This document shows positions 27,249-33,275 of a DNA stretch of 64,000 nt, one piece after another. The notes under the pieces are model-generated. The model saw only the letters and a list, made by a program, of their open reading frames with translations. It was not told the origin of the DNA and ran no database searches. Position 1 is the first letter of the stretch; each line of letters begins with the position of its first letter. The stretch is from Bdellovibrionales bacterium. Its GTDB lineage: Bacteria > Bdellovibrionota > Bdellovibrionia > Bdellovibrionales > UBA1609. The translations under genes were made by a program, and so were the position numbers. The stretch spans positions 30,432-94,431 of the forward strand of contig JAPPLY010000057.1 in assembly GCA_028819305.1 (NCBI GenBank), written 5' to 3'.

Positions 27249-27704
27249 TATCTGGAGTGCGCTTCTAACATGTTGGATAGAAATCTAGGTGATCTTATTT
27301 CCTCTTGTTTTTTCAATCTGATTTCCCATTCTTGAGGTGTCAAGTAACCTAAAGAAGGGGGAAGTTGTTTCTTAATTATATACCTCCTCTATGTGGCCGT
27401 CAGGCAGAGGGTCACGGCTTTAGCCGTGGGAATCTATGAAATAGAGATAAATATTATCTTATTCTTTTTTCTCTATTAATAAATTTTAAAAGCATAAGAA
27501 AAACTTATAAGTATGTGCTCCATATATTTATATAATGTTTATATATTTCTTGTTTTGTTTAAATTATGTCAAATTTGCTCTAAAAATATTTAAAATAGAT
27601 TTAATTATTCTCCTCTATAAAGTATAAGTAAAATTTTTTTATGGATATTTAGGAAATAAAATGGAGTGCGTTCTGTATTTTGTGATAAGGAGTTTATAAA
27701 AATA

Positions 27705-29129
27705 ATGAAAGACAAATTAAAGACATTCAAAATAAGGATTTTTGTCGTTTTATTCTTGTGGAGTGTGGGATGTGAACGAGAACCATTTGATAAGGGTAAA
27801 GGAAATGAGGGTCAGTCACCATTAGTTTGTTCTTTTCCGAATAGTCTTAAAAAAGCGGTTTCAACGAGTTTAAAAAAGGAGTGTGAAAATAGCACTCTAA
27901 AAGACCTCCATTTCATTAAAAGTTTAAGGATAGAGATCAATAAAGGAGAGGGGGGCTTGTTAACAAAAAAGTATGCACCTTATTTTAAATCCCTGGAAGA
28001 ATTAGATATATCAAACAACCCCACCTTACTATCTTTACCGGAGTTTGTTTCTTATCTTCCTCATCTAAAAAAATTAAATATTTCAAGAACTGGTATTAAA
28101 AGTTTTCCAAAAGAAATATGTCAATTGAAAAACAGTTTAACAACTTTGCTAGCGACTCATAATAACTATGAAGATCAGGAGATTCCTATGGAGGTGTTTT
28201 GCCTCCATAAATTAAAAATATTGGATATGTCTAACAGTTCTCTTCATTATATAGATGAGTATATTGGTAAGCTTTCTCATTTAGAAGAACTTTATGTGTC
28301 CGGGAACTTCTTACTTATAATTCCACACATGCTACCCACCCTTCCTCGTTTAGTGTTAGTGGATTTTAGAAATAATTATCTTAAAAATGAAGACTTAAAT
28401 TCGATACAAAGCTGTAAAAGCCTTGAAGAGGGTGAAAGAGAAAAATGCCAGGAAGATTTATTAGGTTCTATTACCTGTGAAGCTACCCATGAATTGCCCT
28501 TTCAAAGGGGGGAGCCTTTAAGGCAAATGTACACAAGTTTAGTTGCTCAGCATGAAAAGGCGATCATAGAGCAATGTGAACAAGACTCCGTATTTGTCTA
28601 TTGCCCTAGTTTTTTTACAAAGTGCAAGGAGTATCCTGATTACGATAAGCCACAGTGTATGTTGGATGTGTTTGAAAACCCCAGGGAAGAAGAGAGGCAT
28701 AGACCCCATAGAGATAGATGTTATCTAACTTGGATAGGTTGGTTTGTGGATTATGATAAATCCCCTGAACTTTTAAATAAAACCATACGGGGTCAAACAA
28801 TTAGAGAGTTGAGATATGTCAGTAGATATATGCAAGAAAATAAAAATTTTTATGAATATTGTTTTAGACCATGGTGGAATCCTTTTAAAGATGTTCGTAT
28901 AGATGCCCCCTTCTTAAGAAATTGGGTTGATAATGCTCCTCAAAAATATGAGCCGCACCCGGTGGAAATGTTTCCTAAAGCATTCCGATACCCGGGTATT
29001 GCCTCTCATGTGAAAGCTTGGTTTGCTGATGGGGATGAGTTTCACTGGGTTCCAGAGAATTGCCCTCATTTACCTAATAATTTGAAAGAACAGATAGAAA
29101 AAATAGCGAACGAAGAAAGGGAAGAGTAA
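27705..29129 (+). CDS. Secreted or lipid-anchored leucine-rich-repeat protein with a Cys/Trp-rich C-terminal domain of unknown function
   Basis: Signal MKDKLKTFKIRIFVVLFLWSVGC (possible lipobox). At least 6 LRRs (LEELDISNNPTLLSLPEFVSYLPHLKKLNISRTGIKSFPKEICQL...LKILDMSNSSLHYIDEYIGKLSHLEELYVSGNFLLIIPHMLPTLPRLVLVDFRNNYL). The ~230-aa C-terminal domain has many Cys. AAGGAG lies 11 nt before the ATG. Confidence 0.75.
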   Translation: MKDKLKTFKIRIFVVLFLWSVGCEREPFDKGKGNEGQSPLVCSFPNSLKKAVSTSLKKECENSTLKDLHFIKSLRIEINKGEGGLLTKKYAPYFKSLEELDISNNPTLLSLPEFVSYLPHLKKLNISRTGIKSFPKEICQLKNSLTTLLATHNNYEDQEIPMEVFCLHKLKILDMSNSSLHYIDEYIGKLSHLEELYVSGNFLLIIPHMLPTLPRLVLVDFRNNYLKNEDLNSIQSCKSLEEGEREKCQEDLLGSITCEATHELPFQRGEPLRQMYTSLVAQHEKAIIEQCEQDSVFVYCPSFFTKCKEYPDYDKPQCMLDVFENPREEERHRPHRDRCYLTWIGWFVDYDKSPELLNKTIRGQTIRELRYVSRYMQENKNFYEYCFRPWWNPFKDVRIDAPFLRNWVDNAPQKYEPHPVEMFPKAFRYPGIASHVKAWFADGDEFHWVPENCPHLPNNLKEQIEKIANEEREE

Positions 29130-29132
29130 AAC

Positions 29133-32100: not shown

Positions 32101-32624
32101 CACTTGATTCAGACTATGAAAAAGCCTTACATGGTTTTAAAAAGCTTTACCACTCTGCTAAACCATTTCGAAGAAAGGTTTCTTTAGAAACATTTAATTC
32201 TGGAATTAAAGCATTTATACAAAAGGCTAATTTTGAAGAAGTAAGGTTAAGAGAATTTATTCAGTCTCAAACTATAGAGGAAAAAGCACAGCAAATATAT
32301 GAGATGAGTTCACTTTTGAACACACGGTATTTGCCTACAGAAATTAATAAAAATGCGTTTGACCTCTCTATATTACTAACTCTTGGAATTTTTAGCAATG
32401 TTGTTTTTGTCTTTGTGTCTGATAAAAGCTTTACTAACCTTACTCTTTTTGATTCTTTATTTTGGCTTGGTCTGTTGGTTTTTAGCGGATATGCTTATAA
32501 CCGTCTTAGCTCAAAGAGTATTTCTGATCATATAAAAGACATAAAAAGAGGCGCGAAAAGAATGGGACCAAATATCAGAAACAAATGCTCTTTAGTTTTT
32601 AGGAATTTAAAATTAAAAAAATGA
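29133..32624 (+). CDS. Large (1163 aa) polytopic membrane protein of unknown function
   Basis: ATG 3 nt after the LRR gene stop. Signal-like N-terminus (LRCILSLSLIFIPSYGYS). Three clusters of hydrophobic helices by eye (e.g. IDIGVIIVAWILASAQTF / LLFLGVGFLVVVAAAGHFAIPIL; GMRLWAVSLPIMILG / VVGALYFAGAGFILFGLPQIW; LSILLTLGIFSNVVFVFV / FWLGLLVFSGYAY). No motif I recognise. Confidence 0.7.
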   Translation: MIKSTLNTGLRCILSLSLIFIPSYGYSNSNVETLINRLEAEYRRTQEDLPLEFREASQVLREMGEAFTENRLGEYIDSRPALKTKFDLLSLSNQSVTALDYKESPTFTVHFDEESKSVHSYKRILTNIDVAFNDQGKLVFKGIVVSESQKHNLNKKIGLIHTFDNIEEKDIVDWDYDKEFLVLLHRKRGFILYHMMFVYELLGVSPIPSISLPAGHVLDLKNVKLEFIDRTVQPPVKGSHNDVAVNLDGKPMFSAGDLLISYDDSNNEKRITRVLARSKDLIPAVNKQYMILDSLIKVRNLKLDRDTSSSGSSLELYLTEILDTILSAVLNKKAISYFSKFSELIELMPYFLTYRYVDKNSDRFSHTEWLEDYQRITESAPHLFNNRLKEEGKIISSEEIVKALKPIVAIHQEEQRHRLKKWLNNKYIDLIKEHKIDIGVIIVAWILASAQTFSSLSYYRGVGNSTGDAVNNLLFLGVGFLVVVAAAGHFAIPILNKLKQNLPLPGEFELTLEQIIEKWGADHIRTRDRLAAFGFKVAALSLPLIYRGFQILGEPHVHAALTQGVNPFQRVNPQSDLGRAGDIRRPMFLGLGWPRWRRGEFYEKKSQLVDLASEQKKRVESLSRLMAYYALSNQEFDIRSLLTGPFSMDHSFDYKDQKLMLDFNYVSYELSEYILKHARTDLTRSIFEWDVTEINDDFNRKALEIAQKVQSIAWTRKQVRELRRVVTQGFQKGLAWNTEEARVLMSYYPTPAAADQFWRGLIIDHLALVGFPLTSLTPRGDFYIGNMHVAAIEPYTMHRSSAPHLYEAGANIGIHDVMSARQQLQFLVLKRNEKLKKLFEKQEKSYAPLEEYFNLTKNTPGVWQYTLDSSKYPGNFGEKIYEGKEQEERIDAGGLLWKSIRIGMRLWAVSLPIMILGREIFTPEYSFYSNVVGALYFAGAGFILFGLPQIWTMHHNLVFTKRSEETKKIIDGIKLTDHRIRQKLYDSFSSLDSDYEKALHGFKKLYHSAKPFRRKVSLETFNSGIKAFIQKANFEEVRLREFIQSQTIEEKAQQIYEMSSLLNTRYLPTEINKNAFDLSILLTLGIFSNVVFVFVSDKSFTNLTLFDSLFWLGLLVFSGYAYNRLSSKSISDHIKDIKRGAKRMGPNIRNKCSLVFRNLKLKK

Positions 32625-32705
32625 CATTGTGAACTAAATTTACTTTTATATTTAAGCAGTAAATAAACGATATTAAAATCGTGAGCAAATAAAAAGGGGG
32701 TTGTT

Positions 32706-33275
32706 ATGCAGACCATAATTGGCTATGGAAAGAAATTTAAAAAAAGAGTCATGACCCTAAAAGTTTATTTCGTCTTTGGTGTTTTATTGGTGTTTTCTGT
32801 TTTACTTTTTGCTCAAAAAGAGGAAGAAGTAATTTATATGTTTGAAATGTATAAGATGTATAGCGCATTAAATCACACAGAACAGAGGGATGTCTGGTTT
32901 AATAAAATAGAAGAGATGGCTAATAAGATTGGAAACATATTGGCCTTGCAAATTGTGTATAATATAACCAAAAACATTCCAGATCCGGGTTTTCATGTAG
33001 CCGTCAGTAATCTGAAAAGGAAGAAAAAACAGAGGAACCCTACCTGGCCGATTTTTGATAGTACAGGGCAAATAGATCAAGCTGCAATAAGACATAATTT
33101 TCTTAGAGAAGTGTATCCAGTAAGGGAAAGCCTTGATGAGGGTTCTTTCCGTACATTTCTGGATAAAGGAGCAATGATGCGACTAAGAAGTGAAGGTGAA
33201 TTAGATAGATTGGTAGAAAAAATCAAAGCCCCCCTTCCTGATAATTTATGTCAAAGAGGTTTTTCTGATAAGTAA
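32706..33275 (+). CDS. Small membrane-anchored or secreted protein, unknown function
   Basis: 189 aa. Strong SD aaaaggggg 5 nt before the ATG. Hydrophobic segment LKVYFVFGVLLVFSVLLFA. Same strand as 29133..32624 and 81 nt downstream of it. Confidence 0.6.
   Translation: MQTIIGYGKKFKKRVMTLKVYFVFGVLLVFSVLLFAQKEEEVIYMFEMYKMYSALNHTEQRDVWFNKIEEMANKIGNILALQIVYNITKNIPDPGFHVAVSNLKRKKKQRNPTWPIFDSTGQIDQAAIRHNFLREVYPVRESLDEGSFRTFLDKGAMMRLRSEGELDRLVEKIKAPLPDNLCQRGFSDK

Follow-up and report, generated by a model that had tools for sequence, protein, structure and literature searches.

A strictly paired leucine-rich repeat lipoprotein and giant membrane protein restricted to small-genome relatives of Bdellovibrio

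Three consecutive open reading frames (ORFs) in a 64,000-nucleotide stretch of DNA from a Bdellovibrionales bacterium (contig JAPPLY010000057.1, positions 30,432 to 94,431 of the forward strand; hereafter the window, meaning that stretch at its full length) raise the question of whether they form one system and what such a system might do. The ORF list placed them on the plus strand at 27705-29129, 29133-32624, and 32706-33275, where a first-pass annotation made from the sequence alone had also drawn them. Their products, a leucine-rich repeat (LRR) protein (gene 1), a 1163-residue protein (gene 2, the giant), and a 189-residue protein (gene 3), are NCBI entries of 'MAG: Bdellovibrionales bacterium' (MAG, metagenome-assembled genome) with locus tags OXM55_0596x. 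The annotation proposed an undescribed three-gene envelope system in an AT-rich block. Its undescribed and envelope character and the coupling of genes 1 and 2 held, the third gene and the AT-rich island did not. The conserved unit is a two-gene operon of genes 1 and 2, without gene 3, and the module is restricted to one clade, a small group of Bdellovibrio relatives with small genomes.

Giant homologs numbered 15 among 5.8 billion clustered proteins, and when 1.84 billion representatives were searched exhaustively with HMMER, the family grew to 84 cluster representatives, nearly all 1,100 to 1,600 residues long. A further profile search of clustered proteins with 62 giants added no family members, and two scans of metagenome contigs for family members found none. 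Related loci, 14 in all, were gathered from the giant side, from the LRR side, and by scanning a genome collection; numbers with the prefix L denote individual loci. An LRR gene with the same C-terminal domain (C-domain) as gene 1 was found directly 5' of the giant homolog in 14/14 cassettes with a readable upstream side, the two genes being separated by anything from a slight overlap to +45 nt. These cassettes were spread over about eight unrelated genomic contexts, across which no recurrent accessory gene was found, only synteny-group effects. The two genes were also duplicated together: L006 held two cassettes in tandem in one genome, and several genomes, including the window's own MAG (L014), carried two at separate sites. 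Identity matrices of the LRR proteins and the giants were correlated (r = 0.88, Mantel p = 2e-4, 13 pairs), as expected when inheritance and duplication act on the pair as a whole. The adjacency, co-duplication, and codivergence bear out the tight coupling of envelope genes 1 and 2 that had been proposed. A synteny check of the proposed trio divided it, genes 1 and 2 being together in every cassette and gene 3 in none.

In the comparison of the window with L004, the ratio of nonsynonymous to synonymous substitution rates (dN/dS) was 0.36 for gene 1 and 0.31 for gene 2, and both genes are therefore under purifying selection. The corresponding values for dnaX, a neighboring lytic transglycosylase (SLT) gene, and csrA were 0.10 to 0.17, which puts the evolutionary rate of the cassette genes at two to three times that of the genes around them. 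The same comparison gave no 100-codon window with dN/dS > 1 in either cassette gene.

All named carriers were Bdellovibrionales MAGs with chromosomes or largest contigs of 0.99 to 2.08 Mb, and two or more cassettes of ~5 kb were kept in genomes of 1.0 to 2.1 Mb. The second cassette of the window's MAG (L014, positions 4222-9756 of another contig) encodes an LRR protein of 577 residues and a giant of 1251 residues (OXM55_06805) with 27% identity to the window giant; its flanks are syntenic with L010 downstream and with L003 upstream. A second contig of this MAG is recorded as ROBB21-1_SAMN13943215, which we take to be a reassembly of the sponge-microbiome data of Robbins et al. 2021. L009, whose cassette is more distant from that of the window, lies in RHO3_bin_17, a 1.45-Mb, 90% complete MAG from the sponge Rhopaloeides odorabile that was classified by GTDB as o__Bdellovibrionales, f__UBA1609 (PMC8163846 and its supplement). 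LRR proteins are enriched in sponge symbionts (PMC8163846).

The paired genes of the window have the following parts, drawn from alignments, hydropathy, Pfam, and AlphaFold2 (AF2) models.

27705-29129, plus strand: gene 1, exported LRR lipoprotein, 474 residues (NCBI MDE0119535)
27705-27773, plus strand: signal peptide and lipobox Cys23, N-terminus ...VLFLWSVGC23
Within gene 1, plus strand: disordered tether, residues 24-40 (AF2 disorder at 25-37)
27897-28424, plus strand: LRR solenoid, residues ~65-240 (Pfam LRR, AF2)
28425-29126, plus strand: helical Cys-rich C-domain, residues 241-474 (AF2 helices 242-474)
29133-32624, plus strand: gene 2, giant, 1163 residues (NCBI MDE0119536, OXM55_05960), ATG 3 nt past the gene 1 stop
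29133-29213, plus strand: signal peptide, residues 1-27, Sec-type
29214-30437, plus strand: N-terminal domain (N-domain), residues 28-435, with a beta-rich core at 94-275 (AF2)
30438-30776, plus strand: hydrophobic cluster 1, residues 436-548 (hydropathy)
30777-31808, plus strand: conserved helical mid-domain, residues 549-892, with D764, H765, R779, and H804 (alignments, AF2)
31827-31967, plus strand: hairpin 2, residues 899-945 (hydropathy)
31974-32363, plus strand: coiled-coil region, residues 948-1077, ending in an invariant LPT (alignments)
32364-32495, plus strand: hairpin 3, residues 1078-1121 (hydropathy)
32511-32621, plus strand: basic tail, residues 1127-1163, with invariant Cys1152 in C-S-L-V-F (alignments)

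Translation of gene 1 starts at ATG 27705, not at an upstream GTG; the ATG is preceded by the Shine-Dalgarno site AAGGAG and agrees with both the NCBI call and the aligned start in the closest relative. The first-pass annotation had described a lipobox-like N-terminus, at least six LRRs, and a Cys/Trp-rich domain of ~230 residues, and each was recovered. The protein has six to eight LRRs, 15 Cys, and 8 Trp, and it exceeded the cut-offs of Pfam LRR_8 (40.6 bits, cut-off 27), LRR_4 (38.4, 27), LRR_14 (41.8, 40), and LRR_1 (28.9, 20.6). Its AF2 model was confident (predicted local distance difference test, pLDDT, 87; predicted template modeling score, pTM, 0.82; pLDDT 92-98 over residues 45-250), with eight short solenoid strands spaced ~24 residues apart between residues 73 and 236. 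Foldseek of the model against PDB and BFVD returned LRR matches only (probability 1.0 to LRR structures), among them Leptospira LIC proteins, internalins, SHOC2, and LRR proteins of giant viruses; because LRR matches alone were listed, the C-domain was not searchable separately in this way. The isolated C-domain had no match in Pfam or in a PDB profile search. The closest LRR matches beyond the family were eukaryotic.

Conservation across the LRR family points to export and to two fixed surfaces. The lipobox Cys23 was conserved in 97% of 39 family members, and two cassette LRR partners had an ordinary signal peptide in place of the lipobox. The residue at position +2 after the lipobox Cys is Glu in the gene 1 protein and L, S, R, or G across the family, from which no Asp rule was readable. 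The number of cysteines after the lipobox Cys was even (8 to 16) in 38/39 members, a signature of an exported, disulfide-bonded protein. LRR repeats 3-4 (LKVLDMSxSSIRYIDEYIGKL) and the C-domain motifs TIxGKTxRE and E-x-FPE were near-invariant, even among paralogs, and the remainder of the C-domain was variable through Cys-rich insertions.

The description of the giant in the first-pass annotation also proved accurate, from an ATG 3 nt past the LRR stop and a length of 1163 residues to a signal-like N-terminus and three hydrophobic clusters (~436-548, 899-945, and 1078-1121). All 13 giants inspected (13/13) had a basic n-region, a short h-region, and a cleavage site of the P-x-Y-[GA]-Y-[SA] type, as in Sec-type signal peptides. 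Hydropathy across the family resolved paired hydrophobic helices at 436-454/474-492, 899-920/927-945, and 1078-1096/1103-1121, with an extra candidate segment at 530-548. The AF2 model was beta-rich at 94-275 and helical in the remainder, with single helices of up to 55 residues. Conserved positions of the N-domain were D177, P206, P208, G256, and D257; past the first hydrophobic cluster came W519, S575, and G578, and in the mid-domain four near-invariant polar residues, D764, H765, R779, and H804. An invariant LPT lies eight residues ahead of the last hairpin; it has no Gly after it and is followed by two hydrophobic segments and ~95 residues, unlike C-terminal sorting signals, and NCBIfam models of such signals (LPXTG/sortase, MYXO-CTERM, PEP-CTERM, and similar) did not match the giant.

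Cysteine was nearly absent from these proteins. Across 62 giants its content was 0.00 to 0.15% in every region (4 of 26,750 residues in the N-domain, 5 of 21,527 in the mid-domain, and 0 of 9,216 in the coiled coil), against a mean of 1.3% in 10 cytoplasmic housekeeping proteins of the window. Exactly one Cys was nonetheless found in the C-terminal tail of 61/62 giants, in a basic C-x-x-[AVILG]-F motif 0 to 11 residues from the end.

Searches of Pfam, NCBIfam, PADLOC, and PHROGs gave zero matches for the window giant. Among 40 diverse giants scanned with Pfam, four had a C-terminal helix-hairpin-helix (HhH)/RpoA-CTD-like domain (best E 2.8e-8) and nothing else was matched; a first set of seven diverse giants likewise had no Pfam family beyond HhH. 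A PDB sequence profile search with 62 giants reached a best E of 0.028, and the candidates it raised, IncA and a Q-beta A1 fusion, were rejected as coiled-coil or chance matches. The giant model had no Foldseek match in PDB at E <= 0.001, and local WD40/propeller-like matches to the 94-275 beta-domain (probability <= 0.41) were too weak to be trusted. On these negative searches, which also covered PDB sequences and Foldseek against PDB and BFVD, no described family accommodates the giant, the gene 1 C-domain, or gene 3 beyond the LRRs. The same absence had been noted in the first-pass annotation.

The third gene presented a different picture.

32706-33275, plus strand: gene 3, lineage-specific, 189 residues (NCBI OXM55_05965), N-terminal signal/anchor

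As the first-pass annotation had it, gene 3 starts 81 nt 3' of gene 2 behind a strong, GGGGG-type Shine-Dalgarno site and encodes a membrane-anchored protein with a hydrophobic N-terminus. None of the 14 related loci contained a homolog, the 83%-identical cassette being no exception, and the protein was a singleton among 15 billion proteins clustered at 90% identity. It had no match in Pfam, NCBIfam, PADLOC, or PHROGs and no relative in a scan of viral contigs. A distance of 66 to 73 nt separates the giant stop from the SLT gene in the orthologous loci of 83% and 39% identity, and gene 3 is therefore a lineage-specific insertion. The gene 3 protein contains one Cys, C182, which is part of its C-terminal tail (...NLCQRGFSDK).

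A comparable gene was observed in L008. Directly 3' of the giant gene there, at 14034-15632, lies a gene for a 532-residue HhH-repeat protein in which a signal peptide is combined with four or more HhH/RpoA-CTD-like units (HHH_5 E = 1e-27) and a TSGATS-rich low-complexity stretch; the L008 giant likewise ends in an HhH unit. This HhH protein has one Cys in its entire length, located in a basic, giant-like C-terminal tail (…QKCMQVVGSLLPKKK). Gene 3 and the L008 gene are otherwise unrelated, each being located just 3' of a giant on the same strand. When 571 ORFs from all loci were scanned for the combination of a hydrophobic N-terminus with a low Cys number and the tail motif, the real genes retrieved were the 15 giants and gene 3 only. 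Because this is a post-hoc observation on few cases, the shared tail is suggestive only; judged from these sequence features, gene 3 may be a looser, tail-sharing, strain-specific partner of the giants.

What, then, might the pair do? We tentatively favor a complex that spans the periplasm and is made up of the tethered lipoprotein and the giant, the latter anchored by hairpins, a reading to which we would give a little less than an even chance. The giant would be Sec-exported and fixed in the inner membrane by its three hairpins of hydrophobic helices, with its N-domain, mid-domain, coiled coil, and basic tail all on the periplasmic side. This placement is suggested by the export signals, the even-Cys lipoprotein, the uniform Cys depletion, the paired helices, and the occurrence of the single-Cys tail on a signal-peptide-bearing HhH protein beside one cassette. 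The LRR protein, lipid-anchored and probably located in the outer membrane, would dock on the conserved N-domain of the giant through its invariant surface, which combines LRR repeats 3-4 with the TIxGKTxRE patch in the C-domain. Each paralog could obtain its own ligand or contact from the variable, Cys-rich C-domain inserts, and the giant would contribute the membrane anchor and long helical spacers. Its invariant tail Cys may form an intermolecular disulfide with another giant or with an exported protein that ends in this kind of tail, the gene 3 product and the L008 HhH-repeat protein being candidates. The likely role of such a pair would be that of an envelope tether, scaffold, or sensor.

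Several points weigh against this arrangement. Across the family, the hairpin flanks and the C-terminal tail are strongly basic (net +3.4, +2.9, and +7.5) and the hairpin loops are neutral, so the positive-inside rule would put the soluble parts of the giant in the cytoplasm. The third hydrophobic segment at 530-548 means that cluster 1 could cross the membrane an odd number of times. The HhH/RpoA-CTD-like domain that ends four of the 40 giants is more often a cytoplasmic nucleic-acid-binding module, with ComEA as a periplasmic precedent. The Cys depletion bears on topology indirectly, and the AF2 model of the giant is weak, of moderate confidence (pLDDT 63.6, pTM 0.41). The even Cys number of the LRR partner leaves no free Cys for the tail of the giant; pairing of the tail Cys with a free Cys of that partner was accordingly rejected (38/39 partners even-Cys). 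An SLT-type neighbor would suit, if thinly, a complex that crosses peptidoglycan, yet the association was limited to two contexts with convergent transcription. Physical contact between the LRR protein and the giant is something we infer, as are the outer-membrane site of the lipoprotein, the topology of the giant, and the role of the tail disulfide, and the biological role of the module is a guess.

Some of these points would fit a split transmembrane receptor instead, in which the LRR lipoprotein, together with the N-domain of the giant, senses a ligand in the periplasm or at the surface, the membrane is crossed an odd number of times, and a cytoplasmic mid-domain with a basic or HhH-bearing tail provides signaling output or a nucleic-acid or membrane tether. 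The basic flanks and tail, three crossings if 530-548 spans the membrane, and the HhH domain would all be accounted for, and D764, H765, R779, and H804 could form an active or binding site. However, the mid-domain and the coiled coil are as Cys-free as the exported N-domain (0.02% and 0.00%, versus 1.3% in cytoplasmic proteins), 36/40 giants lack a known output, enzyme, or DNA-binding domain, and the same tail occurs on proteins that bear their own signal peptide. We regard the receptor as unlikely, though it is the alternative that survives best.

A bolder extension of the periplasm-spanning complex would make the tail its central feature. Here, otherwise unrelated exported proteins (the giants of roughly 1,200 residues, the gene 3 product, and the HhH-repeat protein) would share a basic C-x-x-x-F single-Cys tag and be covalently coupled, through a disulfide or other thiol link, on a giant-LRR scaffold that mediates contact with host or prey, constituting a new clade-specific envelope system. 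We put this forward as a long shot.

Delivery to a host or prey cell was weighed as well. The LRR protein would then be a surface or secreted eukaryote-like protein, the giant would be inserted in a foreign membrane by its hairpins, in the manner of a chlamydial Inc protein, and the basic single-Cys tail would serve as a lipidation or targeting tag in the target cell. Such a role would suit small-genome Bdellovibrionales carriers, one of them a sponge MAG and another, the window's own, labeled ROBB21 and read as part of a sponge study, as well as the enrichment of LRR proteins among sponge symbionts, the eukaryotic affinity of the nearest LRR matches outside the family, and a multicopy family evolving two to three times faster than neighboring genes. 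The three 'bilobed' hairpins beside a coiled coil recall Inc proteins, and the polybasic C-x-x-x-F tail is loosely like polybasic-CaaX tags. However, both proteins carry Sec-type signals, one of them with a lipobox, and neither signal is like those of type III or type IV effectors. The tail Cys is usually off the CaaX position, and the IncA match, although the best PDB sequence match at E = 0.028, is nonsignificant and falls within the coiled coil. The LRR face is near-invariant among paralogs rather than diversified, and no dN/dS window exceeded 1 in the single comparison made, that with L004. The window showed no secretion system, a span of 64 kb being too short for judgment. We consider this role distinctly improbable. 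The evidence leans toward an extracytoplasmic scaffold, and a signaling or delivery complex, as the first-pass annotation suggested, is possible as a lesser prospect.

An integral three-gene system with the 189-residue protein as an obligatory third subunit is refuted as a conserved trio and very improbable indeed: the gene has the same strand, a short 81-nt distance, its own Shine-Dalgarno site, and the design of the giants (signal/anchor, Cys-free body, single Cys in a C-x-x-x-F tail), yet it has a homolog in 0/14 related loci and is a singleton in the protein clusters.

Two further features frame the cassette.

27441-27704, plus strand: leader/promoter region of the cassette (GC 0.186), with the Shine-Dalgarno site AAGGAG at 27686-27691
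33403-34374, minus strand: MltD-like SLT lytic transglycosylase, convergent neighbor (Pfam SLT 89 bits)

The leader is indeed very AT-rich, as had been noted, and ~215 nt of it are ~80% identical to the region 5' of the orthologous LRR gene in L004. A promoter scan found no consensus sigma-70 site on its plus strand; scanning for promoters and terminators showed no enrichment and no terminator 3' of gene 2 or gene 3, and an Rfam scan of the window returned zero RNA-family matches. Sharing of upstream k-mers among 12 cassettes was no higher than in shuffled sequence. The block of genes 1 to 3 had been described as more AT-rich than its flanks; the difference was marginal (GC 0.349, versus 0.362-0.367 in the flanks and 0.372 in the window), and at the 19th percentile among same-size windows an AT-rich island or horizontal acquisition was ruled out. 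The wider window is ordinary housekeeping DNA, including genes for AlaRS, PriA, RseP, men functions, and a PilT-like ATPase.

Downstream, the convergent lytic transglycosylase that the first-pass annotation had recognized was recovered by Pfam and scored 110 bits against the NCBIfam MltD model (cut-off 508). The gene is syntenic in L004 and L005. Two of the roughly eight contexts had an SLT-type gene converging on the cassette, that of the window, L004, and L005 and that of L006 and L009, and a functional link between this neighbor and the cassette is only a possibility. In L006 and L009, paralogous proteins of 445 to 538 residues with a partial SLT match are encoded on both sides of the cassette and had no BLASTP similarity to the window SLT protein.

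L006 6725-8152 and 18642-20246, L009 6787-8124 and 13920-15536: partial-SLT paralogs, 26.1 bits in L009, above the cut-off

Upstream, the cassette is preceded by a YgjP-like metallopeptidase gene and dnaX. The YgjP-like gene (26418-27248), located between dnaX and the cassette in the window, is reduced to a 27-residue remnant in L005 (8086-8166) and absent in L004, and the intergenic region 5' of the cassette is therefore in flux. Between this gene and the leader, the minus strand at 27299-27388 has the translation ...SLGYLTPQEWEIRLKKQEE..., a peptide that may resemble the C-terminus of rve/IS3-type transposases. An IS3-type transposase remnant was dropped as a candidate, the 61-residue peptide having no Pfam match. 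The first-pass annotation had also bounded the block upstream with a 'family E' fragment at 27378-27440, which was not verifiable as a repeat: the 30-mer at 27410-27439 was unique in the window at <=3 mismatches. It holds a CACGGC-TTTA-GCCGTG hairpin, and only the final 9 bases of the 30-mer (AATCTATGA) are found again, closing one copy of a 41-nt repeat family (2419-2613, 8158).

Other repeats were observed further upstream. Three direct 35-nt repeats at 23960-24124 (start-to-start spacing of 67 and 63 nt; identity of 91% and 71%) look less like a CRISPR array than like partial duplications of the 3' end of a GTPase gene. That gene (23396-23986) encodes a 196-residue Ras/Arf-like protein, and the first repeat extends across its stop codon. 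An unannotated ORF of 119 residues (24394-24753), flanked by the GTPase gene and dnaX, has conserved counterparts in L004 and L005. A 221-nt direct repeat has copies at 5915-6135 and 6796-7016, with 93% identity and 881 nt apart, and its 30-nt core recurs at 7077-7106.

The carriers are known from metagenomes only, and their lifestyle could be that of a predator, an epibiont, or a symbiont. The pair is a good entry point to their surface biology because no copy was ever split and at least two ~5-kb copies are retained in 1- to 2-Mb genomes. With at least 84 sequence clusters, neither a Pfam model nor a solved relative, and no published account found in the literature, the giants are a family whose definition would clear up some 'dark matter'. 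Their near-zero Cys content and one invariant tail Cys offer a simple, directly testable hypothesis. If the tail is truly a shared coupling tag, envelope assembly would gain a new principle; if the pair is merely another lipoprotein-partner tether, its annotation is still useful and the three-gene model is corrected.

For comparison with known systems, none of the three proteins matched the anti-phage defense models of PADLOC at E <= 0.1, and no description of an LRR-giant pair was found in the literature. The nearest relatives of gene 1 by structure were Leptospira LIC10831, LIC11098, and LIC12234 and the Listeria internalins, which share its solenoid of 22- to 24-residue LRRs and were the best Foldseek matches (E ~1e-6, probability 1.0). 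Bacterial LRR surface proteins and lipoproteins are exported like gene 1, which exceeded the cut-offs of the Pfam LRR families. Unlike them, gene 1 has a 230-residue, disulfide-rich helical C-domain that matches nothing, is always encoded, and codiverges, with a giant membrane protein, and has an LRR surface that is conserved among paralogs rather than variable.

Among effectors and other eukaryote-like proteins, the Xanthomonas proteins XopAC, XopAE, and XopL align with gene 1 through the LRR region alone (NCBIfam E 1e-15 to 4e-7; 57.2, 48.1, and 29.3 bits against cut-offs of 450, 600, and 500, respectively). In contrast to these effectors, gene 1 has no Fic or E3-ligase domain, and a lipobox and signal peptide replace the type III signal. 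The chlamydial protein IncA resembles the giant in having paired ('bilobed') hydrophobic helices beside a coiled coil, a feature that is not specific to Inc proteins. IncA has one hairpin in roughly 270 residues, compared with three in the 1,163 residues of the giant, which has a Sec signal peptide instead of a type III signal and a lipoprotein partner without counterpart. Gene 1 also falls in the LRR class of the eukaryote-like repeat proteins of sponge symbionts, and the L009 cassette lies in the sponge MAG RHO3_bin_17. That class is defined by domain content, not mechanism, and a lipoprotein locked to a giant partner falls outside the concept.

Closest in logic are Tol-Pal, LpoB-PBP1B, and RcsF-IgaA, in each of which a tethered lipoprotein meets a membrane-anchored partner with large periplasmic parts, and the analogy may extend to the peptidoglycan-cleaving enzyme gene that adjoins the cassette in some contexts. 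The likeness would be one of common logic only: no Pfam or NCBIfam match to TolA/TolB/Pal, LpoA/B, or RcsF/IgaA was found in either protein, nor in the 7 and 40 family members scanned. Compared with those partners, the giant is far larger and anchored by hairpins, and its interaction and topology are inferred here. By analogy, then, the pair would represent the lipoprotein and membrane-partner design of the bacterial envelope, built in this clade from an unclassified giant and an LRR lipoprotein with an unclassified C-domain.

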